Shown: in pieces, positions 7,986 to 26,037 of the stretch | Position numbering within the stretch: the stretch's first letter is position 1 | Layout of the letters: the number at the start of each line of letters is the position of its first letter | NCBI GenBank assembly: GCA_965200315.1 | Contig: OZ241362.1 | Span: 608,001-672,000, forward strand | Origin: Candidatus Latescibacterota bacterium | GTDB lineage: Bacteria; Latescibacterota; UBA2968; UBA8231 | Direction of reading: 5' to 3' | DNA length: 64,000 nt | Translations under genes and position numbers: made by a program | Notes under the pieces: generated by a model | The model's database searches: none | What the model was told of the DNA's origin: nothing | Seen by the model: only the letters and a program-made list of their open reading frames with translations

Positions 7986-9188
7986 TCAAAGGGCTGACAC
8001 TGGAATTGACAAGGCCCCTTCTGCCAGCGGCAGCGAGTGTTCGGCCAAGCAGATCACGCCGCCACCGCCTACGGGCTGTTTTAATTTTTGTAGGGCTTGG
8101 AAGTGGCGGATGTGGTCTTTGTGGGGCGAAGCGGTCTTTTTGAATTCCAGCGGATAGAGCGTGCCGTCCTGCACGATGAGCAGGTCAATTTCCTTGCCGT
8201 CTCGGTTCCTGTAATAATAGAACGGGGCTAGGCGGCCGTTGTGCCGGTAGCTTTTCAGCAGTTCACTCACGATCCAAGACTCCAAGATGGGGCCGGACAT
8301 AGCCCCGGCTTCGAGTGTTTCGGGGCTAGCCCATTCGGTGAGGTAGGCGCATAGCCCGGTATCGACAAAATAGAGCTTGGGGCTTTTCACCAGCCGCTTG
8401 GTCAGATTTGTATAATACGGCTCCAACAGATAGACCACGCCCGAAGCCTGTAAAATCGACAGCCAGGTTTTGGCGGTATTGGGAGCGACATCCGCATCGC
8501 GTGCCAAGTCCGAAAAGTTTAGCATGTGCCCGGTCCGGGCCGCCGCCGCCCTAAGAAAGCGCAGAAAAGACAGCTCATCGCCCACTCGGGCGAGGTCGCG
8601 AATGTCGCGCTGGAGGTACGTCTGCAAATAGGCACTATAAAAAAGGCCCCAATCCATTTGCTCATCCAACGCAATGGCGGGAAAATCGCCGCGCCATATC
8701 AGCCGATAGAGTTCCTTTAAGCCGAGGGGTCTGCCTGCGTGGAGCCTATCTGGAGTCGGCAAAAACGGCCCCACCGCTCCCTCGCCCAGCCGCTCGCGCC
8801 GCGAAAGCCCCAAAAGCTGCACGAGGCCCACCCGCCCGGCCAAGGATTCGGATACGCCTTGCATCAGGTGAAATTGCTGAGAACCTATAAGCCAGAATTG
8901 ACCGGGTGTGCGCTCGCGATCTACGGCCATTTTGATATAGGGTAGTAGCTGGGGCGCGTATTGGATTTCGTCAATGAGCACTGGCGGCGCGAATCGCTGC
9001 ATGAACAGGGCGGGATCTTCTCGCGCCAAGCTCTGGAGGAGGGGATCGTCGAGGGTGACGTAGGTTCGGTCTGGTTTGCTTACCTGACGCAACAGAGTAG
9101 TCTTGCCGACCTGCCTAGCTCCACAGACCATGAGTACGGGAAATCGGCAAGACGCAACGAAGGCTTCAAGAGTTCGGGAAACGTACAT
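7986..9188 (-). CDS. AAA_14 ATPase with DUF4143 C-terminal domain
   Basis: GARQVGKTT, IDEIQY, SESLAGR, KSPKLYFVDTGL, EIDL..LEFK. Confidence 0.92.
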   Translation of the reverse strand: MYVSRTLEAFVASCRFPVLMVCGARQVGKTTLLRQVSKPDRTYVTLDDPLLQSLAREDPALFMQRFAPPVLIDEIQYAPQLLPYIKMAVDRERTPGQFWLIGSQQFHLMQGVSESLAGRVGLVQLLGLSRRERLGEGAVGPFLPTPDRLHAGRPLGLKELYRLIWRGDFPAIALDEQMDWGLFYSAYLQTYLQRDIRDLARVGDELSFLRFLRAAAARTGHMLNFSDLARDADVAPNTAKTWLSILQASGVVYLLEPYYTNLTKRLVKSPKLYFVDTGLCAYLTEWASPETLEAGAMSGPILESWIVSELLKSYRHNGRLAPFYYYRNRDGKEIDLLIVQDGTLYPLEFKKTASPHKDHIRHFQALQKLKQPVGGGGVICLAEHSLPLAEGALSIPVSAL

Positions 9189-9302: not shown

Positions 9303-9851
9303 TTAGCATATATCGCCAATATTCAACGCCAAGCCCGGCAAGGTCGGCGAAGTCAAGGTCGCTCCTTGGCCATAGGTATCCACGCCCTCGTATCCGCACT
9401 CGCCCAGCAGCAGAACCGTTATGTCTTTTGCGGCAGGGTCCACTATCCAGTATTCGCTCACGCCGTGCTTGGCATACAGCGTACGCTTGAATTTCTTGTC
9501 GCGTTCAGCGGTGGAGGGAGACAGGATTTCGACGACTAAGTCCGGCCCCCCCTGAATGTTCGCCGGCGTGATGATGTGGACGCGCTCATTGGAGACGAAC
9601 AGCAGATCGGGCTGCACCACGTCCACGTCCGACAGCACCACGTCGAAGGGCGCGAGATAGACCCGCCCCAAACTGTTCTCAGACACGAATTGAACCAATT
9701 TCCACCCTAGCAGAGCGGAAATGCTCTGATGACGTTCACTAGGCGCAGGGGTCATAAACAACTCTCCGTCCAGCAACTCGTAGCGCTTGTCTTCCGGTGC
9801 GTTCAGGTAGTCTTCGTAGGTAAACTTGACTAGGGGATTGGGGATAGCCAT
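9303..9851 (-). CDS. Uma2 family (DUF820) endonuclease
   Basis: RYELLDG, QPDL, PDLVVEILSPST, GVSEYWIVDP. Confidence 0.93.
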   Translation of the reverse strand: MAIPNPLVKFTYEDYLNAPEDKRYELLDGELFMTPAPSERHQSISALLGWKLVQFVSENSLGRVYLAPFDVVLSDVDVVQPDLLFVSNERVHIITPANIQGGPDLVVEILSPSTAERDKKFKRTLYAKHGVSEYWIVDPAAKDITVLLLGECGYEGVDTYGQGATLTSPTLPGLALNIGDIC

Positions 9852-11007: not shown

Positions 11008-12141
11008 ATGGCTCGCAAAAGCACCATCGAGTGGACCAACAGCACTTGGAACCCAGTTACCGGCTGCACAAAGGTTAGTGCCGGTTGCGACCATTGCTAT
11101 GCCGAGCGCCTTTCCGAGCGTTTCCGAGGCGTCGAAGGGCATCCTTTCGAGACCGGCTTTGACCTGACCCTACGCCCCAAGCGTCTCGAACAGCCCATGC
11201 ACTGGCGGCGTCCACAGCTCATCTTCGTCAATTCGATGAGCGATCTCTTCCACAGAGACATTCCCACCGAGTACATCGAGCGCGTATTCGACACGATGGA
11301 GCGCACCGATTGGCACATTTACCAAGTGCTTACCAAGCGGAGTTCGTTGATGCGCCGTTTCGTCCAGGGGCACTACCGGGGTCAAGCCGCTCCCCCGCAT
11401 ATCTGGCTCGGCGTGTCCGTCGAAAACCACGCGGCCTTGACGCGCCTCCGGCATCTGCAACAGACCAACGCCTCCGTCCGCTTCGTTTCCTTCGAGCCGT
11501 TGCTCGGTTCAATAGACGAGGTGGACTTGGAGGATATTCATTGGGTAATCGCCGGGGGTGAAAGCGGGCCGCGAGCACGGCCGGTGCGAGCAGAATGGGT
11601 ACGAGCCTTGCGCGACCAGTGTCAGGCTCAGCGCGTCGCCTTTTTCTTCAAGCAATGGGGCGGGCGCACACCTAAATCAGGCGGGAATACGCTCGATGGA
11701 CGCCAGTGGCTGGAGTATCCAGAAGTGGAGACCGGTCAGCAGCTTGGCAGGCCATTACAAGCTATCGGTGCGCCAGCCGATGCTGAAAATGAGCCGCAGG
11801 ATGTCGGCCCTTGGGCACGAGAGAAGCTAGAGTGCCTGCGCAAATATCTCCATGCCTACACAACCATTCTCAGTAAGCAGCCGAGGTTCAAGGGCTACTT
11901 CTACATCGATGCCTTTGCGGGACCGGGAACGCTTAAAATCCGCCGACAACAAACGGGCGATCCCGACCAGAAATTACTGCTTACTGTTTACTCATCGCAT
12001 ATAACCTCCGTTATCGTTCCGTTCTTCATCGCTGTTCTCAATGCTTTATTGTCGAGGACCAGCATCACACTGGCAAGTTTGCGAAAAGCCTGCAACTCGG
12101 CCCGTTGGATATTGGCCCGATCACCTTTAGCGAATCCATAA
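11008..12141 (+). CDS. DUF5131 (phage Gp37/Gp68 family) fused in frame to a truncated three-Cys-motif partner (TcmP) N-terminus
   Basis: IEWT..TWNPVTGCTKVSAGCDHCYAE, NSMSDLFH, GGESG, FFFKQWGG; then VGPWAREKL..YL.AY..YIDAFAGPG. After about 11985 the ORF reads antisense to a toxin gene. Confidence 0.85.
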   Translation: MARKSTIEWTNSTWNPVTGCTKVSAGCDHCYAERLSERFRGVEGHPFETGFDLTLRPKRLEQPMHWRRPQLIFVNSMSDLFHRDIPTEYIERVFDTMERTDWHIYQVLTKRSSLMRRFVQGHYRGQAAPPHIWLGVSVENHAALTRLRHLQQTNASVRFVSFEPLLGSIDEVDLEDIHWVIAGGESGPRARPVRAEWVRALRDQCQAQRVAFFFKQWGGRTPKSGGNTLDGRQWLEYPEVETGQQLGRPLQAIGAPADAENEPQDVGPWAREKLECLRKYLHAYTTILSKQPRFKGYFYIDAFAGPGTLKIRRQQTGDPDQKLLLTVYSSHITSVIVPFFIAVLNALLSRTSITLASLRKACNSARWILARSPLANP

Positions 12142-13317: not shown

Positions 13318-14181
13318 GTGTTGTGCTACTTTATGTGTCCACTTAAATATAGTGCTATCTTAGAGCAAATCCGTTGGGGCAATGATCCCTTTTGCCCACT
13401 ATACGGCGACCATGATGTAGCCCAAAAGGCCGAGAATCACCGCGTAGGCCGGTGGAATTGCCACGGCTGCAAATCCTCTTTTAATGTCCTGTCTGGGACC
13501 ATTTTTCAAAAGACGAAAATCCCCCTGCAAAAGTGGTTTTTGGCAATCTCTCTAATGGCCAACGCCAAAAAGAGCTTGTCGAGCTACCAGTTGGCCCACG
13601 ATCTGGAACTTAACCAGAAAGCCGCGTGGTTTATGCAGCAGCGCATCCGCGCCGCTATGGCATCCGACGAAGGGGCCTTGCTGCAAGGCATCATAGAGGC
13701 GGACGAAACCTACGTCGGGGGCCGCGCTCGTTCCCGCACGTCCAACAGGGGCAAAGGTCGCGGTCGCGGCTCTGGTAAAACGTCCGTAGTTGGAGCCGTC
13801 CAGCGCGAGGGCGAAGTCAAGGCCACTGTTACGGACGATACCAAAGGCCGGACCGTCTTAGGCTTTATCGAGCAGTCCGTTGACGTGTCTGAATCCTCGC
13901 TAATCACCGACGAGTACAAAGCCTACACCAACGCCTATAAGTTGATGCCGCACCGCACCGTCAACCACAGCGCCGAGGAATACGTTGACGCCAGCGACAA
14001 GACCCTACACACCAATACCATTGAAGGCTTTTGGTCGTTGCTCAAACGCGCTTGGTACGGCTCGCACCACAAGTACACGAAAGGCTGGTCGCCTTTGTTC
14101 GTCGCGGAAGCGGTCTGGAAGTACAACCACCGCAAAGACGCCGACGCCTTCAACGGTTTCCTCAAGGCGTGTTTCGTCTAG
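13318..14181 (+). mobile_element. IS1595 family (ISXO2-like) transposase, N-terminus possibly degenerate
   Basis: Zn-ribbon CHGC, IEADETYVGG, ITDEYKAY, VNHS, HTNTIEGFWSLLKR. Confidence 0.92.
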
Positions 14182-15568
14182 TCTGTCGCTCTAGCTCCGC
14201 AATTAACCACTCCATAGGCCGGTCGCCCTTCAAGCTGTTGCAAGCCCCGCAGAGTAGTTGAAGGTTGTCGGGGTGGTCTGTACCGCCTTTGGAGCGCGGT
14301 ACGATGTGGTCGATATGGAAGCTGTGGAATGGGAAGGCGAACCGGCAGCCGGTGCAGTGGCCTTTCTGCTTGCCGAATAGGGTTTGCCGGTGCGTCCTAT
14401 ACGGCACTAGCTTACCTTGATCGGTGCGACGCGGTTGATCGGTGCGGTGCGTTATGCGAAATAGGCCCCCAATTTCGCGTTCTTTTACCGCTCGCAATTG
14501 CACCAGCTCTGCTGCTTTTTCGCTTAGGTCAATCCCTACCCATTCACGGCCCCGCAATTCAGCCGCTACCAGTGTTGTAGCGCAGCCACAGAAGGGATCT
14601 ATCACCAGCATTGCTGCTAGCCTGAATAATCCAGTCCAATAAAGCGCGTGGTTTTTGAGTTGGATACCCTACCCACTCTTTGCCCTTGTTATAGTTAGTG
14701 AATCCTATCGGGTTTAATATCAGGCTTTGAGGCGGGTTGCCTTTATCTGAGGCTGCGTATCTCTTTAGGCCGGGCCATTTCCCTGTTGTTGGATGGTGGA
14801 TTAATCCAGCCGCATCTAGGGCGTCTAGACGCTCTTGGACACCTTTAATACTGCGATAGTTTGGGATAAAGTGCTGTTCGATGTACTCCGCATACGCACC
14901 CGTCTTAGGAGGTGACCAACAACGGCCTCGCGCGTACATATCATAGCCATTCCAAGGCTGGGTACTGGGCCGGATATGCCTTCTTAATTTCCTCGGTAGA
15001 CTTGGGCGTTGCGATAGCCGCACCGTTCCATGTCCAATTATCGCTATTGGTATAGAATAGGATGTGATCTAAGTTGCGGCCGTACCGCTTAGAATCGTTA
15101 TGAGCGGTTGCCCTTCGCCAGACGATATGATTACGAAATCGTCCTGTTCTAAACACAGCATCACATGTCAGCTTGAGATAGTGAACGACAATATCATCGC
15201 AATGCACGTACAGACTGCCCGTATCCTTGAGAACGCGCCGCATCTCTAGCAGCCGCGCCGCCATCATAATCAAGTACGATTTCATGCTCTTACCGTGCGC
15301 GGTGCTGGCGGCATCAATGACGGAATACAGGGCCGGTTCCGTCTCGGCTATAAGGCCGTGTAGAGCCTCGTCCACATCGTCCAGTGTCCAAGTATCCTTA
15401 GAACGCCGCGCCCGCAGCCTCAGAGCCTATCGGAGCCGAATAGGTGCGATTAGAGTTGAACGGTGGGTCGCAGTAAATCAGATCAACGCAAGCGGAGTTC
15501 ATTCCCCGCATAATGTCGGGTTTATCGCCCGTCCATATCGTCCGATTCTTCCAGTTAGGCGCACTCAT
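14162..15568 (-). pseudogene. Beta-class N6A/N4C DNA methyltransferase fused to a C-terminal HNH nuclease, frameshifted
   Basis: Start 15568: NWKNRTIWTGD..VDLIYCDPPFNS; then RVLKDTGSLYVHCD; YPTQKP; DPFCGCATT; HIDHIVPRSKGG..NLQLLCGACN. Spread over four reading segments, with breaks near 15400, 14970 and 14605. Confidence 0.88.
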
Positions 15569-15810
15569 TAGGAGCCGTACTCCGTCCTATGGGCATCGCA
15601 CCACCGGCATCCTTCAAGGGAAATCCAGCCGTACGAGTGGCCCGTCATGAAACAACTGTGCCACTTGTGCTTACCTCTACGGCACAAGAGTAGTCGCGGA
15701 ATCCACAACCAGAAGGGCCGGACTCGACGTTTGAGCCGAGGCCATACACGCCAAGGCTTGACAGTCCAAAGCGCAGACAGTATCGTGCATGCAGCTATAG
15801 CTAGTTCCAT
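15568..15810 (-). CDS. Small hypothetical protein, coupled to the MTase-HNH gene
   Basis: GGAGG RBS; TAATG stop/start overlap; hydrophobic N-terminus and C/H cluster. Confidence 0.5.
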   Translation of the reverse strand: MELAIAACTILSALWTVKPWRVWPRLKRRVRPFWLWIPRLLLCRRGKHKWHSCFMTGHSYGWISLEGCRWCDAHRTEYGS

Positions 15811-15869
15811 CTTTTTCCTCCTACGGTTATCAGCACCGTGCCATTAATGTAACCGTTATTACTTATCTG

Positions 15870-16256
15870 TTAAGCCCCTAAAGACTTATTGCCTTCTTTA
15901 AAGTCCGACTGGCCCGTGCGGTCGTGGAACAGAAAGGCGGCGCCATTGGACGAAAACACAAACGGCACGTCGAGAGCTTTGGCATAGCCCAGTGCCTGCT
16001 GCATCCCGCCGCCGACCGGGTGGCTGTTGTCCTTGGCTTCGACCACGGCGAGCGGAAGGTTGGGTTGATAAAACAATAAATAGTCAGCGCGCTTCTTCTT
16101 ACCCCGCAAGCCCAGCTTGCCCCGCACAATGACCCGGCCCTCAGTAAAGGTGTATTCGCGGCGAATTTGCGTACTCTGATTCCACCCGGCCCCGATGATC
16201 GCCGGGGTGATGCAGGCGTCGCATATCTCCGCTTCGTTCAGGAGCTTCTTGTTCAT
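15870..16256 (-). pseudogene. hsdR: Type I restriction subunit HsdR (EcoAI/EcoEI-like), N-terminal fragment only
   Basis: ITPAI..AGW, GRVIVRGK, RADYLL, LAVVEAKDN, GMQQALGYA, FSSNG; ends at 128 aa, before any helicase domain. Confidence 0.88.
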
Positions 16257-18627: not shown

Positions 18628-19584
18628 GTGAAGGTAGTACTGAACTATGATATGGGGGAATCCTTCGCCGAAGAATTGCAGGCGGCGTTTCCCGAGCTGG
18701 ACTTTTGCCCGGCCTATGGCGAAGCAGAGCAGATGCAGGAGGTGGAAGATGCGGAGGTTGTGTTTGGGCTGATGAAGCGGCCTGTGTTTTTAGCGGCAAA
18801 AGAACTCAAGTGGTTCCACTTTGTCGGCATCGGCTTCGACCCGATTGCACGCGAAATACCGGAATTTCGCACGGGTGAGGTGGTGATGACCAATGCGCGC
18901 CAGACGCATGTCGTGCCCATGGCCGACCACGTCTTCGCCGCCATACTCGCGTACGCCCACCGGCTCCCCGAACTGCTCGAAGATCAGCGCAACCACCAGT
19001 GGAATACCAAACGCTATGTGCGGCGCATCATCGAATTGGCCGGGACCAAGATGGGGGTGCTGGCGATGGGAGACATTGGCCGTGGAGTGGCCACGCGGGC
19101 CGCCGCCTTTGGAATCGAGGTGTACGCGGTGGATATCCTGCCGCTGGAACCGCCGCCGGGGGTGTGCGCGGTGTGGCCGGTCGATCGGTTGGACGAGATG
19201 CTGGCGATGATCGACTGGCTGGTGGTGACGGCCCCGCGAACCGAGGCGACGGCTGGAATGCTCAATCGGCAGCGGCTTGCCCTGCTCAAACAAGGAGCGT
19301 TTGTGGTGGTCGTCTCACGCGGGGGCATCGTCGATGAGGAAGCGCTGGCCGAGGGCTTGCACACAGGCCGCATCGGCGGGGCCGCACTCGACGCGACCGC
19401 GGTCGAGCCGCTGCCGCCCGACAGCCCGCTGTGGGACGCGCCCAACATGCTGATCTCGCCGCACACCTCGGCCGAGTCCGTGCAACTGATCGAGCGCCGC
19501 AAGGCCATCTTCGTGGAAAATCTGCGCCGCTATCGGGCCGGCGAAACCCTATTGAACGTATGCGACCTAGACAAGGGATACTAA
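18628..19584 (+). CDS. D-2-hydroxyacid dehydrogenase
   Basis: GDIG, SRGGIVDEEAL, GAALD..EPLP, ISPHTS. GTG start after AAAGGA. Confidence 0.9.
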   Translation: MKVVLNYDMGESFAEELQAAFPELDFCPAYGEAEQMQEVEDAEVVFGLMKRPVFLAAKELKWFHFVGIGFDPIAREIPEFRTGEVVMTNARQTHVVPMADHVFAAILAYAHRLPELLEDQRNHQWNTKRYVRRIIELAGTKMGVLAMGDIGRGVATRAAAFGIEVYAVDILPLEPPPGVCAVWPVDRLDEMLAMIDWLVVTAPRTEATAGMLNRQRLALLKQGAFVVVVSRGGIVDEEALAEGLHTGRIGGAALDATAVEPLPPDSPLWDAPNMLISPHTSAESVQLIERRKAIFVENLRRYRAGETLLNVCDLDKGY

Positions 19585-20835
19585 ATGACAACAAAACCCC
19601 ACCTGCCCCCGTCCCCCATTGACGAGGGCAAAGTCACCGTAACTGCAATCGAATCCGTGCAGCCGCTCGACCTGTTCCCCGACTTGCTGCTGGTCCGCAT
19701 CCACACCGACGCCGGGCTCATCGGCCACGGCGAAACCTATTACTGCGCCGAGGCCGTGCAGGCCATGCTGCACGACTGGATGGCGCGCCGGCTGTTAGGC
19801 GAAGACGCGCTGGCCATTGAATCGCACTGGCGCTTCCTCTACGAGCGCGCCGCAAACTTCGGCGTCCGTGGCGCGGAGATCCGCGCTTTGTCGGCATTGG
19901 ACTTAGCACTGTGGGACATTCTCGGCCAGGTCTGCAACCAGCCGATCTATCGCCTACTCGGCGGGCCGGTGCGCGACAAAATTCTGGTGTACAATAGCTG
20001 CGGCAACCCGCAGTACGGGCCGAGTACCACCGGACGCAAGGGCTGGCCGGGCTTTGGCGCCATCGGCGAGCCGGGGCCGCTGGGCGATTCGTGGAAGCTG
20101 TTTCACGAGCCCGTGGCACTGGCCGAGGAGCTGGTCGCGCTGGGCTACAGCGGCCTAAAAGTCTGGCCCTTTGACCAAGCGGCCATCCAGTACGGCCCAG
20201 CGCGCATTCCGCACCGCGCAATCGAGGAAGGCGTACAGCCCTTGCGCGAGATCCGCGACAAGGTGGGCATGGACCTCGACATCTTCGTCGATGGCCACGC
20301 GCATTTCCAGCTCCCAGCGGCCCTGCGCATCGCCGAGGCATTGCGCGAGGTCGCGCCGCTGTGGCTGGAGGACGTGATCAAAATGGACAACCTCGACACA
20401 GTAGCCGACTTCCGCCGCCAGAGCCGGATGCCCATTTCCGCGAGCGAGATGCTGTTGAGCCGCGCCGATTACAACTATGTGCTGATGCGCCAAGCCGCCG
20501 ATTACGTGATGATCGATCCAACCTGGGTCGGCGGGATTTCCGAAACCGCGCGGATTGCCCATCTGGCTCAGACCTATAATGTGCCGGTCAGCATGCACGA
20601 CTGCACCGGCCCGCTGACGCTCTTTGCCGGCCTGCATGTGGGCGCGGCCGTAGCCAATTGCTGCTATCAGGAAACTGTGCGGGCGCAAATTCAGACGGTG
20701 TATCGAGAGCTGATCGACGTGGAGGTGGAAATTAGCGGCGGGTATGTGAACCTGCCCAAAGGCAGCGGTTTAGGGGTCAGGCTAAATCCCGATTTGTTCA
20801 AGCCGGAACGCCCGGGCTATCGGATTTCGAGGTAA
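19585..20835 (+). CDS. Mandelate racemase/MLE family acid-sugar dehydratase
   Basis: GHGET, SALDLALWDILG, KVWPF, DGH, WLED, ASE, MHDCTGP. Confidence 0.9.
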   Translation: MTTKPHLPPSPIDEGKVTVTAIESVQPLDLFPDLLLVRIHTDAGLIGHGETYYCAEAVQAMLHDWMARRLLGEDALAIESHWRFLYERAANFGVRGAEIRALSALDLALWDILGQVCNQPIYRLLGGPVRDKILVYNSCGNPQYGPSTTGRKGWPGFGAIGEPGPLGDSWKLFHEPVALAEELVALGYSGLKVWPFDQAAIQYGPARIPHRAIEEGVQPLREIRDKVGMDLDIFVDGHAHFQLPAALRIAEALREVAPLWLEDVIKMDNLDTVADFRRQSRMPISASEMLLSRADYNYVLMRQAADYVMIDPTWVGGISETARIAHLAQTYNVPVSMHDCTGPLTLFAGLHVGAAVANCCYQETVRAQIQTVYRELIDVEVEISGGYVNLPKGSGLGVRLNPDLFKPERPGYRISR

Positions 20836-20952
20836 TGTGTGTTCAAAGGTTCGATCACAGACCATTGTATGTTGGTCACATCGGTAGCATATTGTCCAGC
20901 AAGTGTATTCATCTGAGACCTTTTTGTGCAGAGTCAAAGACAGGAGATAATC

Positions 20953-21423
20953 ATGGGAAGCAAATTTAGCCCCGCAGAGATCCAGCAGATGAAGGACGAA
21001 GCACATGAAGATATGAAGGAGGCACTTGATGAGCTCCGCCGCGACGAACCAGAGATGGCCGATGCGGCTGGGGCGGCAGTAGGTATCACACTGGGTGGCG
21101 CAGCATCGTTCACTGCCCTCTATTTCGGAGGAGTGACGGGCCTATCGGCCGCCGGGATCACCTCTGGGTTGGCAGCGGCAGGTTTCGGTGCCGGAATGGT
21201 GGCCGGAATAGGTGTCCTAGCAGCACCGGTGGCCGCCTTGGCGGTTATCGGCTATGGCATCGCCAAGAAGCGGAGGAACGCGAAACTGGCGGCAGCCCTA
21301 GGTAGAGCTATTGAGAAGCTCTACAAAATCCAAGAGCGACTCATGGCAAACGCCGAGTACTTTCGCGAGGAACTGGCCGAGATTAAGGCTTATATCGACC
21401 AGTTTGAGCATCAAAGACCGTAA
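20953..21423 (+). CDS. Hypothetical protein with Gly/Ala-rich hydrophobic hairpin between charged helices
   Basis: AGGAG RBS, ATG 20953; GLSAAGITSGLAAAGFGAGMVAGIGVLAAP core. Confidence 0.85.
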   Translation: MGSKFSPAEIQQMKDEAHEDMKEALDELRRDEPEMADAAGAAVGITLGGAASFTALYFGGVTGLSAAGITSGLAAAGFGAGMVAGIGVLAAPVAALAVIGYGIAKKRRNAKLAAALGRAIEKLYKIQERLMANAEYFREELAEIKAYIDQFEHQRP

Positions 21424-21435
21424 AATGGTATAGTC

Positions 21436-22812
21436 ATGGACAGCAAGGACAAACAGCGAAATATCAAAGCCATTAGGCATCTGCAACGACGGTCCGATGC
21501 TATAGAGGAAGACCACGATGGCCTCAGTAAGGACCTTCGCGCTATCAAAAAGCGTCTGGCGGAACTAGGCGACGTAGACAAGGTGACGCCGGATTTTACG
21601 AAGAGGAAGCAGGCCCATCTTGATGCGATGAGCGAGCACAAGGAACTCCCAGATGTTGACTTGGAGACCATTTACAATGAGGCGGAGGCGAAATTCCCGG
21701 GGGATACTAACCTAGACGACATCCTAACTACCGACGATTGGGCAGTCGTGAATAAACGGATCGCGGTCCATATCAAGGATTTCAATGCCCGCTATGCTCT
21801 CGATAGGTGGGACTATGCCATTGCCGGAGGATGCGGCCTGTTCGCAGCGATGCTTGACTTGCTGTTTGTGAAGGCTCCTGCCAAGCCAACCACCGAGTGG
21901 ACGCAAGGGGTGGACGGCGTGTTCAACAGAGGAGTGCAACAGGCATTCAACCGCCTGTTACCTTCCGATGTGAGCGAGGAACTCAGTAGGTTGAACACCA
22001 TCGGTGGTGCAGACTCTAGCACAGTGGATCAGCTACTGGGAGCACCACCACGAACATTGAATCCCATGAACCATCGGCTGAGGTCATTATCCCACGATCC
22101 AATTCTGGGATTCCTGTTCGGCGTTTTGGACATGCAGCGCGGCACATGCACAGTAATTGGGAACGACGGCCTAAAGATATACCAGACTACTATGGAACCT
22201 ATGGACGGCGGCTTGTTCCCACTGCTTGGCCGCCTGTTCGGGCACCTTCTATCGGATGTTAATGCCCCCTCCGCAAGCGGCAATAGGGGCATGGGATTAC
22301 CCGCTCCCTTTATGGGGATTCTCCGCATGTTTGACAGCCTCCCAGCGGGAGACTCCGATCTAGGTAAGCAGATCGAGTATATGTACGTCAAGGGATATGA
22401 CTTTCGCCAGTTTGTCGTGACCAGTATTCCTGTGCTGATCATGGAGGTGATGATGCGCGTCTTCTATACCGTCAAACAGGTTAAGCTCTACGACTCGTCG
22501 CTGGGGGAAGCTCTGATCGACACGATGCCCCTGAAGATGAACCCTCGATTCAGAATGATGCTCGCTATGGCCTATGGAACGGTGGCAACAGTGAATGGGG
22601 CCAGAGTGTACATCACCGAAGACATTCTCAATCTGAACTACGCGGCGTGGCTTGGGCTTGTATGGAACGGTTTCCATGCTATAAAATGGGCACTGCTGGA
22701 CAGGAACCTGAAGCTCTGGGGAGAAGTCGAGCGGAAGGAGGTAGAGGCGCTGGAGCGCAGCGTGGATCAGATCGATGGTTTGGCTGACCGCGCAGGACGA
22801 TTACCTGTCTAA
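21436..22812 (+). CDS. Hypothetical 458-aa membrane-associated helical protein
   Basis: Long intact ORF 12 bp downstream of its partner; N-terminal coiled coil and several hydrophobic segments; HRLRSLSHDPILG and MYVKGYDFRQF blocks. Confidence 0.85.
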   Translation: MDSKDKQRNIKAIRHLQRRSDAIEEDHDGLSKDLRAIKKRLAELGDVDKVTPDFTKRKQAHLDAMSEHKELPDVDLETIYNEAEAKFPGDTNLDDILTTDDWAVVNKRIAVHIKDFNARYALDRWDYAIAGGCGLFAAMLDLLFVKAPAKPTTEWTQGVDGVFNRGVQQAFNRLLPSDVSEELSRLNTIGGADSSTVDQLLGAPPRTLNPMNHRLRSLSHDPILGFLFGVLDMQRGTCTVIGNDGLKIYQTTMEPMDGGLFPLLGRLFGHLLSDVNAPSASGNRGMGLPAPFMGILRMFDSLPAGDSDLGKQIEYMYVKGYDFRQFVVTSIPVLIMEVMMRVFYTVKQVKLYDSSLGEALIDTMPLKMNPRFRMMLAMAYGTVATVNGARVYITEDILNLNYAAWLGLVWNGFHAIKWALLDRNLKLWGEVERKEVEALERSVDQIDGLADRAGRLPV

Positions 22813-22828
22813 ATGTAGCGGATTGAGA

Positions 22829-23419
22829 CTACGAGGAAGTAGAAGGATGTGCGAGGGTACGGATTTCGCGTACGAATTTGTCGAACGAAGGGCACTGCTG
22901 CGCTTGCCCCAAGTCCATCCTGCTCGCAAATGCCGCTTGGTCAATGGTCTCGCGATACGTCAAACCTGTAGACATATTGTTCGATAGCCAACCTTTCGCG
23001 TCTCGAATGCGTTCAGCATTCGCAGGTGCTACGAGGCTGTCAGCAAGCCCTCTAAAGCCTGCCAGCGAATCGGCGGCTGCAACAAACCACGACTCAAACT
23101 CGCTTTTTGCAATGACGACCGAGATGCGTCTATCGGGCCGGCTTCCGGCTGCACGGGCCGCCATAGCAGGGGCCAACTCCGCAGGACAGTCGGCGGCATC
23201 GACCAGCACGACAATCCCGTCTGTTGTGGAGATGCGGCTTGCCGCTAAACTGACGGCTCTTTCCAACTCGCCCGGCTTGAGCAGCTTGCCCCTTGGTACG
23301 CGAATGGAACGCTCTACCGCAACATCGTAACGCTGCAATTTCTCTTGCAAGACTCGGCGCAATAGAACCCGTACTGCTTCGACATCGCCGTGGCCTTCTA
23401 CGATGGCGATCAATTTCAC
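22829..23419 (-). CDS. DUF4276 family protein (TOPRIM-like)
   Basis: IVEGHGD, VLVDAADCP, EFESWF, YRETIDQ, PSFDKF. Confidence 0.82.
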   Translation of the reverse strand: MKLIAIVEGHGDVEAVRVLLRRVLQEKLQRYDVAVERSIRVPRGKLLKPGELERAVSLAASRISTTDGIVVLVDAADCPAELAPAMAARAAGSRPDRRISVVIAKSEFESWFVAAADSLAGFRGLADSLVAPANAERIRDAKGWLSNNMSTGLTYRETIDQAAFASRMDLGQAQQCPSFDKFVREIRTLAHPSTSS

Positions 23420-24609
23420 AGATCCAATCCGAACAGATTCAATTGTCTAACGCCAAGTTCTGTCGCTTGGGGATCCGGCCTAAGCTGGTCCATGCGGAGT
23501 AGCTCGCCAGCGGTATATAGATGATCGCGCAACGCTGCTCTCCCCGCTTCGTCCAAGGGACCAATTTTTGTATCGCCGTCCTCGGAAACGACAGCTTGTA
23601 TAGTGCTGTCGGGCAGTGATGCATCATCGAGCAAATCGGGACTGTGGCTGGTAATGAGCACTTGTCGGTGATCGCTCGCATCGCGCAGACTATCCGTCAA
23701 AACACCGACCGCGGCCGGATGCAGGGCGACCTCGGGTTCTTCAATGGCCACCAACCCCGCCGGGCCTTGGAACAAGGCCACGAGTACGCCGAGAGCACGC
23801 AGGGTCCCGTCTGACATATTGGTGGCGAGGAAGCGCCAAGGATGAGAAGAACCCCTGACGTCCTGCTTAAATTCGAGCATTTCGCGCGGGCCGACAGCCT
23901 TGGGGGCCACCGCATGGACGCCCGGCACGACCGTGGCGAAGTATTCCTCCACGCGGCGCTTCACCGTTGGGGCGTGGTCCTTCAGTGCGGCAAGAACGCT
24001 AGCCATGTTCGAGCCATCGCGGTTGAGTAGTTCGCCTGGATCGGGTGGCTGCGGCTCGCGGATGCGTTCGGGATTCAAATTATAGAAACCCATCGAAGTG
24101 AGAGCGTCATACAGAGGGCGAAACGCCTCTAGGCCGGAGACGTTGACTAGAAAGAGGCGATCTTTGGGAATGGCGGGGACGGGTTCAATACGGATGCGCT
24201 CAAGTGCGCCTTCCTTTATTCGGTAGTAGGCTTTACCCGTACCATCTGTCCCCGGATGAATTGCACATTCCTCTTCGGCAACTAGGTGGGCTCCCCGTTT
24301 CGCACCAATTCTGAAGGCATAGTGACCAAATCGGCCTTTGGACAACTGAAACTCAATGCGAATGGTAAAATGCGTGGGATGCCCACTCGACCGCCGGCGC
24401 ACCTCGTGGATACCTCCGCGATCGCGGAGGGCGTGGTCCAGCGAATAGCGGAGCGCGTCGGCGATAAACCGGAGCGCATCGACGAAGTTGCTCTTGCCGC
24501 TGCCGTTGGGTCCGACGAGAATCGACAGAGGGCCGAGGCTCACATTACACGCGCCGATGCTTTTGTAATTGCGGATGGCCACGCGGGTTATTAGACGGGT
24601 ATCTGACAT
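23416..24609 (-). CDS. ABC-type AAA_21 ATPase
   Basis: Walker A GPNGSGKS, signature MSDGT, Walker B IEEPE, ALHP, ITSHS; 4-bp overlap with DUF4276. Confidence 0.9.
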   Translation of the reverse strand: MSDTRLITRVAIRNYKSIGACNVSLGPLSILVGPNGSGKSNFVDALRFIADALRYSLDHALRDRGGIHEVRRRSSGHPTHFTIRIEFQLSKGRFGHYAFRIGAKRGAHLVAEEECAIHPGTDGTGKAYYRIKEGALERIRIEPVPAIPKDRLFLVNVSGLEAFRPLYDALTSMGFYNLNPERIREPQPPDPGELLNRDGSNMASVLAALKDHAPTVKRRVEEYFATVVPGVHAVAPKAVGPREMLEFKQDVRGSSHPWRFLATNMSDGTLRALGVLVALFQGPAGLVAIEEPEVALHPAAVGVLTDSLRDASDHRQVLITSHSPDLLDDASLPDSTIQAVVSEDGDTKIGPLDEAGRAALRDHLYTAGELLRMDQLRPDPQATELGVRQLNLFGLDL

Positions 24610-24727
24610 GTCTGGCTATGAACCGGATTTTGAGACATTGAAAAAAATAACAGCGTCCCTAGTATTAGCGGACAGTGAAGAGGCGTTTCAACATATCTTG
24701 ATTGCAAAACGTTGACGGAGAAAGTCC

Positions 24728-24904
24728 ATGGAAAAGGTCCGCTATGCCGATTTGCTGCCGTGGGAATTCCGCCAGCGGCTGGCGGCTAAGCCAGTTGCGT
24801 ATCTGCCGCTGGGCACACTCGAATGGCACGGCGAGCACTTGCCCTTGGGCAGCGACGCGATAACCAGCGACTGCAGTCGCCATCCGCGAAAGGACGACGC
24901 ATGA
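24728..24904 (+). pseudogene. Creatininase family N-terminal remnant
   Basis: MEKVRYADLLPWEF..AYLPLGTLEWHGEHLPLGSD; only 58 aa; ATGA overlap with the next gene. Confidence 0.75.
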
Positions 24905-26037
24905 AAATCACCCAAGTAGAGACCATTCGCTTCAAAACCACCACCCGTACCGAAAGCGATTCCGATGGCCACGGCCATCCCGGCCCCGAGCGCGAAACCA
25001 CGCAGACCCTGCTGCAAATAGGCACCGACGAAGGCGTCTCCGGCTACTGGTTTGGCGCGAACGTTCAAGCCATAGACCGCCTCGTCAAACCCGCCATACT
25101 CGGCGAAGACCCCTTGTACCGCGAAAAAATCTGGCGCGACCTCAACCACCGCCAACGGCTCAATCTGGGCACCCTGTCCGACCAAGTGCTCATGGCCGTC
25201 GACTTAGCCTTGTGGGATTTGGCCGGACGCGCCCTCAATCAACCCGTGTACAAACTGTTGGGCGGCTTGCGCGACAAAGTGCCGGCCTACGCCTCCACCA
25301 TGTGCGGCGACGACCTCCAAGGCGGCTTGGCCACCCCCCAAGACTACGCCAACTACGCCCAATGGTGCATGGAGCGTGGATACCCCGCCTTCAAATTGCA
25401 CACTTGGCAACCGCCCTACGCCGGCGCACCCGACCCCAAACGCGACATTGAAGCCTGCGCCGCCGTGCGCGAGGCGGTCGGCCCGGACGTGCCCTGTATG
25501 CTCGACCCCTACCACTACTACGACCGCGAGGCCGCCCTATTCCTAGCCAAGGAACTGGAAAAGCTCGACTATTACTGGATGGAAGAGCCGATGGACGAAC
25601 ACAGTATGTCGTCCTACGTCTGGCTATGCGAACAGACCAGCTTGCCGATCTGCGGCCCTGAGACCTGCGAGGGCAAAATGTACGTCCGCGCCGAGTGGAT
25701 CAAAGCCGGTGCCTGCGACATCAGCCGCTGCGGCGTGGGCGACGTGGGCGGCCTCACCCCATTGATGAAAACCGTGCATTTGTGCGAATCATTTGGCATG
25801 CGCTGCGAAATCCACGGCGGCGGCCCGGGCAACCTGCACGCCCTGTGCGCCATGCACAACGGCGAATTCTACGAACGCGGCCTGTTGCACCCCTTCATCG
25901 ACTTCGACCAGCCTGCCCCTTGGCTGCACGAACACGGTGAGCCGATGGACGAACAGGGTTTTGTCCATGTGCCGCAACGGCCTGGGTTGGGGATGAATAT
26001 CAACTGGGATTACATCGAGAAAAACAAAATCGCTTGA
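24901..26037 (+). CDS. Enolase superfamily enzyme (mandelate racemase-like)
   Basis: DLALWDLAG, PVYKLLGG, KLH, MLDP, WMEEP, GPE, EIHG, PGLG. Confidence 0.9.
   Translation: MKITQVETIRFKTTTRTESDSDGHGHPGPERETTQTLLQIGTDEGVSGYWFGANVQAIDRLVKPAILGEDPLYREKIWRDLNHRQRLNLGTLSDQVLMAVDLALWDLAGRALNQPVYKLLGGLRDKVPAYASTMCGDDLQGGLATPQDYANYAQWCMERGYPAFKLHTWQPPYAGAPDPKRDIEACAAVREAVGPDVPCMLDPYHYYDREAALFLAKELEKLDYYWMEEPMDEHSMSSYVWLCEQTSLPICGPETCEGKMYVRAEWIKAGACDISRCGVGDVGGLTPLMKTVHLCESFGMRCEIHGGGPGNLHALCAMHNGEFYERGLLHPFIDFDQPAPWLHEHGEPMDEQGFVHVPQRPGLGMNINWDYIEKNKIA

Follow-up and report, generated by a model that had tools for sequence, protein, structure and literature searches.

Bunzi is an experimentally supported two-gene defense system. 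The available text of the Millman preprint (10.1101/2022.05.11.491447) describes BnzA as a TerB domain combined with transmembrane helices, ascribes to it a domain for which an interaction with lipids is predicted and which is not named there, and reports that canonical Bunzi was protective against phages. In one other study (PMC11381338), a canonical Bunzi system of lactococcal origin did not protect against the lactococcal phages used. A canonical example from a Lactococcus plasmid pairs a 549-aa A protein with a 511-aa B protein. Our literature search found no mechanistic paper on Bunzi and no report of a pair with a short A protein being assayed against phages. Here we describe such a pair from a member of the Latescibacterota.

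Genomic setting of the gene pair

The window, that is, the whole stretch of DNA that was analyzed, comprises 64,000 nucleotides. It contains two genes, here called bnzA-short and bnzB (proteins A and B; Table 1), which the open reading frame listing confirms to be intact and tightly linked, as an earlier reading of the sequence without database searches (the sequence-only reading) had stated; they are on the same strand, 12 nt apart. For A, the ORF lister takes a GTG at 20926 as the start, which gives 165 aa, whereas the ATG at 20953, which gives 156 aa, is preceded by AGGAG 7 to 8 nt upstream.

Several other elements of the sequence-only reading were borne out. GC content is indeed lower in the module, at 0.53–0.56 across positions 20500–22999 versus 0.61–0.68 (19000–20499) and 0.61–0.63 (25000–25999) in the flanks. 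Enolase-superfamily genes, each with MR_MLE_N and MR_MLE_C domains in Pfam, lie on both sides (19585–20835 and 24823–26037), and the ATPase pair said to adjoin the module consists of an AAA_21/AAA_15 protein and a DUF4276 protein according to Pfam. The genes for these two proteins are adjacent, overlap by 4 nt, and converge on bnzB; by their matches to both models, they are the PADLOC candidate system HEC-01, a unit separate from Bunzi. The suspected defense-island setting also holds: besides the adjacent HEC-01, we found PDC-S01, PDC-S03, and the debris of restriction-modification genes 5–13 kb upstream. An IS is also present near the module.

Table 1. Features of the variable region, in coordinates of the window
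Feature	Position	Strand	Evidence
Left border of inserted DNA and 5' leader of the cassette	20830..20952	+	Same-genus comparison
bnzA-short (A), 156 aa	20953..21423	+	No Pfam match at E ≤ 0.1; PADLOC BnzA match, E 2.1e-10
bnzB (B), 458 aa, all-helical	21436..22812	+	PADLOC BnzB, E 1.4e-51
HEC-01B (DUF4276), convergent neighbor	22829..23419	-	Pfam DUF4276, E 1.9e-14; PADLOC HEC-01B, E 5.4e-70
HEC-01A (AAA_21/AAA_15 ABC-type ATPase)	23416..24609	-	Pfam AAA_21, E 2.8e-29; PADLOC HEC-01A, E 4.3e-163
Bunzi cassette, 2.0 kb	20830..22849		Comparison with a same-genus genome with HEC-01 only
Whole variable island (Bunzi and HEC-01), 3.9 kb	20830..24707		Comparison with same-genus empty sites

Assignment to the Bunzi family

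The sequence-only reading regarded the pair as an uncharacterized, candidate novel system, mentioned Bunzi as a tentative relative, and held that a full-length match to a described system would end the claim of novelty. We found precisely such a match: B aligns over nearly its full length with the PADLOC BnzB model (PDLC03834; 174 bits, residues 9–444 on HMM positions 47–494 of 504), and the module is therefore not an uncharacterized novel system. The tentative link, on the other hand, was right, and A matches the hairpin part of BnzA as well (PDLC03833; HMM positions 310–418 of 544 only, about 20% of the model). The B protein of the canonical Lactococcus plasmid shares 28% identity with B over 307 residues (E 6e-31).

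Like Bunzi, the module is a two-gene operon in which a membrane-hairpin protein comes first and BnzB second, and A has both the hairpin of BnzA and the helix that follows it. Unlike BnzA, which has about 300–550 aa, A lacks TerB and everything else N-terminal to the hairpin, and the BnzB encoded next to it belongs to a separate clade, where every partner is short. That A shows no TerB domain had been noted from the sequence and agrees with the Pfam result in Table 1; the protein is too short to contain one. The DNA upstream does not code for TerB either: 117 nt separate the start of A from the end of the enolase-family gene. The sole TerB match in the genome is located approximately 1.46 Mb from the module. 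The Pfam scan found no Dynamin_N or other domain in A or B. On balance, we favor the view that the pair is a TerB-less, short-BnzA variant of Bunzi that entered a variable defense hotspot beside HEC-01 as a 2.0-kb cassette, and we infer phage defense by the short form.

The short BnzA protein

A consists of an N-terminal charged helix, an uncharged stretch rich in glycine and alanine, and a C-terminal amphipathic helix. The Gly/Ala-rich hydrophobic hairpin proposed earlier corresponds to a segment of approximately 69 residues (approximately 36–104) that contains no charged residue, has a repeated small-xxx-small spacing, and reaches a Kyte-Doolittle maximum of 2.28 (19 residues). We collected 1991 homologues of 85–273 aa; a stretch of 60 or more uncharged residues is kept in 59 of 68 A homologues, and G48, L56, G60, G63, S65, A66, G68, L73, G77, G79, G81, M82, G85, L89, and P92 of the core are invariant in 32 sequences from across phyla. 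The AF2 model of A alone has a pLDDT of 48.9, so the structure and topology of the hairpin are deduced from sequence only. The hairpin is followed by the positive cluster KKRRNAK, which points to cytoplasmic ends of A. The N-termini of both A and B are hydrophilic, and it is on this basis that we judge a signal peptide to be absent.

The A module also occurs within longer proteins, joined to a Macro, ADP-ribosylglycohydrolase, DUF4172, or TerB domain, and judging from these fusions it is portable. A search of 399 scored Bacilli genomes for loci of the ARH-fused form matched nothing but short A proteins and ARH proteins that stand alone. A profile search of PDB sequences with A gave nothing below E 0.029, all matches being coiled coils, and the match to NCBIfam SLATT_1 (17.9 bits, E 0.0022) is under the cut-off of 41.

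BnzB is conserved, and searches found no convincing structural relative

The motif blocks that had merely looked conserved in B are truly conserved among 65 BnzB relatives with 20–91% identity. Positions conserved in at least 90% of these relatives are D126, D141, D193, H213, H220, P222, G225, D232, H270, S273, D274, G287, P289, P291, G320, D322, and R341, and 583 representative clusters match B at E ≤ 1e-3. In comparisons with three relatives, dN/dS was 0.13–0.18 for B and 0.16–0.36 for A; by this measure, both genes are under purifying selection.

The AF2 model of B has a high pLDDT (91.5). Foldseek searches with this model returned no match at E ≤ 0.001 in the PDB (best 0.15) and none in BFVD (best 0.069); the best match of a wide VIA-align search (Z 8.4 over 96 residues) was a designed helical protein, which is within the range of unrelated helical bundles. 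Similarly, a profile search of PDB sequences gave nothing below E 0.37 and only coiled coils, an ESM Atlas search retrieved only unnamed hypothetical clusters, and no Pfam domain was found in N-terminally extended BnzB forms of 593–747 aa. Because no convincing structural relative was found, no effector chemistry can be named for B. Two of its helices exceed a Kyte-Doolittle value of 1.7; they could be embedded in the membrane or, equally, form a buried core.

Predicted complex of A and B

Co-folding of A with B gave a score of 0.63 (0.63, 0.62, and 0.63 in three runs), whereas the best of three controls scored 0.00; in the benchmark for this procedure, which is only roughly applicable here (own alignments), 58 of 80 solved complexes attained this mark, as did 2 of 110 mismatched pairs. 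The runs share at least 41% of their contacts, and the pLDDT of the partner was at least 47. The predicted interface is formed by residues 109–152 of A and residues 5–44, 71–79, and 432–458 of B. The models thus support docking of the C-terminal helix of A on the terminal helices of B.

Linkage, partner types, and phyletic distribution

The linkage of the two genes extends to their homologues: of 79 BnzB loci, which come from diverse phyla, 71 have an A homologue according to jackhmmer and 68 according to phmmer. These 79 loci were drawn from the closer BnzB alignment and are biased toward the two peptide patterns used. The A homologue is found just upstream of B on the same strand in all of the 71 loci but one (L055), where a marginal A match is on the opposite strand. 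Where an A homologue is present, it is mostly separated from B by -20 to +27 nt.

On a BnzB tree of 66 rows, the partner type requires 3 label changes versus a shuffled mean of 18.2. The clade that contains BnzB of the module has 30 rows, all with short A, and in two large BnzB clades, which together make up 46 of the 66 rows, A proteins are as a rule 150–190 aa long. TerB was found in all six long partners tested and in none of the four short ones. As far as this tree goes, partner type follows BnzB phylogeny, and the TerB-bearing long BnzA belongs with a separate BnzB clade. A different arrangement is seen in a Bacilli genome (L091) and on Lactiplantibacillus plasmids, where a strong BnzB homologue has another gene directly downstream and no BnzA upstream. 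The scan covered the L091 gene, which matches PDC-M09A of the PADLOC candidate system PDC-M09 at E 2.5e-68. Our module, in contrast, contains nothing like PDC-M09A, and the partner of B is a hairpin protein of the A type.

Homologues of B were detected on 493 of 72,556 plasmid records, 437 of which are predicted to be conjugative, and hundreds of the carriers are enterobacterial plasmids. Short A is encoded beside B at both plasmid loci examined (L025 and L109), and the E. coli plasmid copy, at positions 9073–10963 of L109, adjoins a HipA toxin-antitoxin pair. Across genomes the distribution is patchy: BnzB was found in 7 of the 401 Bacilli genomes that were searched. For the phylum the count is 3 of 168, including the genome from which the window derives, and for the same genus it is 0 of 30. 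Neighbors of short-A loci include ThsB, IetAS, JukA, MADS, and methylases. Enrichment of defense genes around short-A loci was, however, not demonstrable by PADLOC family tallies over 138 neighbor ORFs at 17 loci: 35 other ORFs of the window, taken as a control, matched 29 PADLOC families, and with a control this rich in matches the tally is not interpretable.

Acquisition of the cassette

Corresponding sites in genomes of the same genus define the borders of the inserted DNA. At three empty sites (L086, L087, and L090), position 20829 of the window is joined to position 24708 with a single base between them. At another site (L088, in genome G125), which has HEC-01 only, position 20829 gives way to 27 unrelated bases, after which the sequence corresponds to 22850 onward. 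A near full-length HEC-01 without Bunzi occurs at this site in 7 of the 30 same-genus genomes, among the matches listed. Because the same-genus sites are either empty or have HEC-01 alone, Bunzi must have arrived as a 2.0-kb cassette, and the locus is a defense hotspot with three states within one genus.

Expression signals

In a single study, three metatranscriptome runs yielded contigs that cover the cassette, although DNA carry-over is possible. One RNA-library contig corresponds to positions 20927–23043, and its start at 20927 comes directly after adapter-like letters; parts of 23446–24381 and of 24850–25317 have no RNA-contig cover. A scan for sigma-70-like consensus sequences found 0 promoter-like sites, and a terminator scan found one terminator-like site, within the upstream gene.

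Alternative explanations

Could the pair serve the cell envelope rather than defense? In such a module for membrane maintenance or envelope stress, the hairpin of A and its partner B would reshape or mend the inner membrane in a dynamin-like or PspA-type manner, and plasmids, mostly large conjugative ones, would hold the pair as a benefit to the host or to conjugation. Weak matches (E 1e-6 to 8e-4) to the hairpin region at the C-terminus of LeoBC, which PADLOC lists with LeoA under "Dynamins", were obtained with A and with every BnzA form tested: the helix-hairpin-helix of A aligns with HMM positions 407–554 of 601 in LeoBC (E 6.2e-5) and less well with LeoA (E 0.007). However, A has no GTPase domain, and these marginal E values may reflect hairpin composition. 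A dynamin-family gene is found next downstream of one Bacilli BnzB homologue (L095), and the lack of protection by lactococcal Bunzi in one study, cited above, also agrees with an envelope function. On the other hand, canonical Bunzi was protective in the Millman study, the distribution in the phylum and in Bacilli is patchy, and insertion of a cassette beside HEC-01 is typical of accessory defense genes. We regard this explanation as unlikely, and it partly merges with the reading of the pair as a Bunzi variant, because membrane protection of the DynA type is itself anti-phage.

Somewhat less probable still is an addiction pair resembling a toxin-antitoxin system, with A as a membrane-depolarizing toxin restrained by B and stabilization of mobile elements as the main role. 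The order of the genes, in which a small hydrophobic protein is followed by a larger partner and the genes overlap or are closely spaced, would fit this, as would their frequency on plasmids and the HipA pair next to the E. coli plasmid copy. Yet B is the larger and more conserved protein, with conserved polar motifs of its own, unlike a simple antitoxin, and related proteins carry the A module in fusion with sensor-like domains.

The restricted match of A to BnzA, as well as the broken restriction-modification genes and the IS nearby, might indicate a decaying remnant of canonical Bunzi that has lost the 5' half of bnzA, which we consider very improbable. We rejected A as a truncated pseudogene, since the short form is the rule in its clades and has 1991 homologues of short size, its dN/dS values indicate purifying selection, and its ribosome-binding site is good. 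It is equally improbable that the pair is a secreted two-component alpha-helical pore-forming toxin (ClyA/XaxAB/YaxAB-like) directed against other cells: both proteins are helical and A combines a soluble helix with a hydrophobic hairpin, as in one component of those toxins, but there is no signal peptide to judge from the hydrophilic N-termini, the context is one of intracellular defense rather than secretion, with no secretion system, B belongs to the BnzB family, KKRRNAK suggests cytoplasmic ends, and no fold or sequence match was obtained, ClyA, XaxAB, and colicin chains being absent from the Foldseek-PDB (best E 0.15) and VIA-align matches listed for the B model.

Proposed mechanism and implications

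As a variant of Bunzi, the pair might work as follows. BnzA-short would be a helical hairpin of the inner membrane with a strongly conserved glycine-zipper core, and its two ends would be cytoplasmic. The amphipathic helix at its C-terminus would pack on the long helices at both termini of BnzB and thereby tether BnzB to the membrane. BnzB, with its conserved head rich in His, Asp, and Ser (residues approximately 190–325), would be the constant core of the family, whereas the N-terminal part of BnzA, which is TerB in canonical Bunzi, would be an exchangeable input domain that is absent from the short variant. Upon infection, the membrane would be where the complex acts, most likely through a collapse of membrane integrity that aborts the infection. 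For the short form, we infer how the proteins lie in the membrane, what triggers them, and by what chemistry the effector works.

More tentatively, the short pair may be the minimal working core of a much broader modular family, in which an adaptor made of the conserved glycine-zipper hairpin and a coiled coil recruits BnzB to the membrane, the N-terminus is a plug-in input, and TerB is dispensable; we offer this as a possibility rather than as the expected outcome. If it were true, the input domains would be TerB, Macro, ADP-ribosylglycohydrolase, or DUF4172, some members would be tied to ADP-ribose or nucleotide-derived signals, and the form without such a domain would detect infection either at the membrane itself or by way of BnzB. 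BnzB would then be a new kind of membrane-associated effector, with a fold that has no solved example.

Of the three BnzB clades sampled, two have the TerB-less form as their sole partner type. The E. coli plasmid copy provides a native, tractable system. If the short form does defend its host, an essential role of TerB as the sensor is excluded, and the helical A-B interface and the conserved head of BnzB would become the targets to test.

A Bunzi-family pair whose BnzA lacks TerB

Bunzi is a two-gene anti-phage system described by Millman and colleagues (preprint 10.1101/2022.05.11.491447), whose BnzA combines TerB with predicted transmembrane helices and a predicted lipid-interacting domain. 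The pair in the window belongs to this family: the PADLOC BnzB model matches B (E 1.4e-51, HMM positions 47-494 of 504), and the BnzA model matches A (E 2.1e-10), the match being confined to HMM positions 310-418 of 544. The sequence-only reading had proposed a novel, uncharacterized membrane module with a tentative link to Bunzi; these matches bear out the link and dispose of the novelty, because the family is known. That reading also saw correctly that TerB is absent from A. A Pfam scan of A and B found zero domains, A is too short for TerB, and the sole TerB match in the genome lies ~1.46 Mb from the pair. Whereas canonical Bunzi on a Lactococcus plasmid comprises A of 549 aa and B of 511 aa, the proteins here have 156 and 458 aa.

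Other proposed features of the locus, including the tight linkage of the two ORFs, were recovered as well. The GC content of the pair is 0.53-0.56 versus 0.61-0.68 in the flanks, and the gene on either side encodes an enolase-superfamily protein with MR_MLE_N and MR_MLE_C domains. The proposed Gly/Ala hydrophobic hairpin of A corresponds to ~69 uncharged residues in a row (~36-104) with charged helices on either side, and the conserved-looking blocks of B are conserved positions in a 65-sequence alignment with identity down to 20%. Of the two convergent neighbors, Pfam assigns one to DUF4276 and the other to the AAA_21/AAA_15 ATPases; PADLOC matches them to the candidate system HEC-01 (HEC-01A, E 4.3e-163; HEC-01B, E 5.4e-70).

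Features of the window and of two related loci
Feature	Coordinates	Strand	Remarks
PDC-S01	7986-9188	-	E 2.8e-104; candidate defense gene upstream of pair
PDC-S03	9303-9851	-	E 3.1e-40; candidate defense gene upstream of pair
PDC-M41B/PDC-M30B-like protein	11008-12141	+	E ~1e-101 to 1e-103; candidate defense gene upstream of pair
IS1595-family transposase	13318-14181		
N6_N4 DNA methylase	14162-15375	-	three overlapping frames, terminal HNH domain
HsdR N-terminal fragment	15870-16256	-	128 aa
Bunzi cassette	20830-22849		
A, GTG start	20926-21423	+	165 aa by ORF lister
A, ATG start	20953-21423	+	156 aa; AGGAG precedes ATG
B	21436-22812	+	458 aa; same strand as A, start 12 nt after A
HEC-01B	22829-23419	-	
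HEC-01A	23416-24609	-	
Second A-like gene, locus L006	5060-5479 of locus		139 aa; immediately upstream of normal 157-aa A
Sole A, locus L008	5630-5989 of locus		119 aa

The stretch 13318-16256 is debris of mobile-element and restriction-modification genes. Among 35 control ORFs (window 26367-63932) there were one type II methyltransferase match (E 1.1e-129), one type II restriction enzyme match (E 1.7e-37), and two mad3 matches, none of them among the ten ORFs scanned individually. With control ORFs that are themselves defense-rich, enrichment of defense genes around the homologs was not shown.

The short form as a family

Homologs of A number 1991 (E<=1e-3; 85-273 aa, mostly 155-160 aa), and those of B form 346 clusters at 90% and 583 representative clusters. 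An A homolog was detected at 68 (phmmer) or 71 (jackhmmer) of 79 BnzB loci from species-representative genomes, a set biased to the two peptide patterns used in the scan. One of the 71, at L055, is a marginal match on the opposite strand; the others lie on the same strand immediately upstream of B, mostly overlapping it or at most 27 nt away. Two of the eight loci without an A match start at a contig edge. Of 68 A partners, 59 retain 60 or more uncharged residues in a row, and 15 positions of the hairpin core do not vary between phyla. In comparisons with three relatives, dN/dS was 0.16-0.36 (A) and 0.13-0.18 (B). Judged by these comparisons, the short-A form is a family rather than a remnant. 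Copies of the pair in E. coli are annotated merely as "membrane protein" and "hypothetical protein."

A quick IQ-TREE analysis of 66 BnzB proteins from the 79 loci (ORFs below 430 aa and exact duplicates left out) gave three clades, and partner architecture tracks this tree. The first clade, which contains the window's protein, has 30 members from Pseudomonadota, Latescibacterota, Binatota, Desulfovibrionaceae, Synergistota, Campylobacter, and Treponemataceae, all with a short partner. Short partners (~180 aa) also accompany the 17 members of the second clade, from Bacillota, Actinomycetota, and a single Bacteroidales genome, and the 19 members of the third, from cyanobacteria and a single Chloroflexaceae genome, have partners of 297-438 aa. 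Among the partners scanned, Pfam identified TerB in all six long ones and in none of four short ones; alignment to the BnzA HMM spans positions ~145-442 in long partners and just ~300-420 in short ones.

Several loci depart from the simple layout. In the probable Latescibacterota relatives L006 and L008, short A-like proteins retain the N- and C-terminal helices, but the glycine-zipper core is replaced by just ~22-26 hydrophobic residues; such a hairpin-shortened A might be a regulatory isoform. Six Bacillota and Actinomycetota loci (L068, L069, L071, L049, L070, and L056) have a three-gene layout, with an extra ORF of 104-118 aa between short A and B or immediately 5' of B. B is shortened at the N-terminus to 422 aa in L019 (Pseudocitrobacter) and L023 (Citrobacter), and in L019 the two genes are ~1.46 kb apart, which points to a disruptive insertion.

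Fused forms, proteins of more than 273 aa known here from proteins alone, join the A module to varied N-terminal domains: ADP-ribosylglycohydrolase (558-713 aa, many named Streptococcus suis), Macro (466 and 513 aa), DUF4172 (334 aa, 51% identity to A over its entire length), and TerB or DUF533 (292-353 aa). By its sequence distribution, the A module is portable across N-terminal domains. Some BnzB homologs lack a BnzA partner: downstream of L091 lies a PDC-M09A-like gene (E 2.5e-68), and downstream of L095 a dynamin-family gene. A close homolog of L091 on Lactiplantibacillus plasmids (L111) has the same layout, with a downstream gene of similar size.

Acquisition and mobility

None of 30 same-genus genomes has BnzB; phylum-wide, 3 of 168 do, including the window's own. 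Among the matches listed, the enolase-family genes are directly joined in at least 10 same-genus genomes, and in seven the site holds a near full-length HEC-01 pair but no Bunzi. By BLASTN, window position 20829 is joined to 24708 at empty sites; in an HEC-01-only genome, 20829 is followed by 27 unrelated bases and then 22850. These borders set Bunzi off as a separate cassette of 2.0 kb, in a hotspot that occurs in three states; no target-site duplication was seen at the cassette borders. The same-genus loci L086, L087, and L090 have ~600-720 additional bases between matches to window 24708-24861 and 24861/24877-25199, so a segment immediately 5' of the second enolase-family gene is missing from the window's genome.

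The nearest relatives, at ~80% identity, are spread over three phyla, which points to horizontal transfer. B homologs occur on 493 of 72,556 plasmid records (437 predicted conjugative, mostly Enterobacteriaceae), and the pair is found in 16 of 5426 complete E. coli genomes, plasmid-borne in 15.

Contigs from three metatranscriptome runs of one study, possibly also the origin of the window's DNA, align to the cassette with a likeness of at least 95% (20927-23043, 21258-23083, and 21463-23234). They hint at transcription, with the caveats that RNA libraries may contain DNA and that a two-gene contig is not proof of a single transcript. A low-depth contig (run X6, depth 3.8) lacks 234 nt of A (21023-21258), which removes 78 codons in frame and with them most of the hairpin; 30 letters flank the gap on the shorter side. 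Misassembly of the Gly/Ala repeats may explain it, or strain variation. Over B, contigs extend 230-420 nt beyond the stop (22813-23234), antisense to the 3' part of HEC-01B; our scan found no terminator-like site downstream of B.

Predicted complex and proposed function

The model of B is confident (pLDDT 91.5) and all-helical, with a long helix at each terminus (4-43 and 402-454) and a head that carries the conserved polar residues. We found no convincing likeness to solved or viral structures, and a PDB sequence search with B gave no match. A alone gave no usable model (pLDDT 48.9). Co-folded, A and B scored 0.63 (runs 0.63, 0.62, and 0.63), and the best of three controls 0.00. For this mark the benchmark gave 58 of 80 solved complexes and 2 of 110 mismatched pairs, counts that are approximate here because the alignments were our own. 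Contact agreement between runs was at least 41% and partner pLDDT at least 47. The models support binding of A to B through a predicted interface of A 109-152 with B 5-44, 71-79, and 432-458. This would be consistent with where the clades diverge most: in A at its C-terminal helix, and in B over the first 60-110 residues.

Bunzi in Aeromonas trota has been called by PADLOC, DefenseFinder, or both (PMC11206119), and A at our A. enteropelogenes locus has 161 aa; hence annotation tools have probably already filed the short form as Bunzi. Our literature search found no description of a TerB-less Bunzi architecture, although supplementary lists may hold such variants, and no mechanistic or structural work on Bunzi.

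On balance, we favor a defense pair of the Bunzi family in which the hairpin of A tethers BnzB to the inner membrane and a membrane event aborts infection. Counted against it are the missing TerB domain, which defines Bunzi, the report in PMC11381338 that one canonical lactococcal Bunzi was unprotective against the phages tried, and the neighborhood comparison, blunted by its defense-rich control. That the pair serves membrane maintenance seems rather unlikely, and that it is an addiction module quite improbable. A decayed remnant is hardly credible given the 1991 A homologs, the A partner at 71 of 79 BnzB loci, and dN/dS of 0.13-0.36, and a secreted pore-forming toxin is just as remote. Under the favored defense reading, the hairpin of A would anchor BnzB at the inner membrane via a helical bundle, the N-terminal domains, TerB among them, would serve as inputs that a member may or may not have, and the infection would be aborted by an event at the membrane as the system's output.
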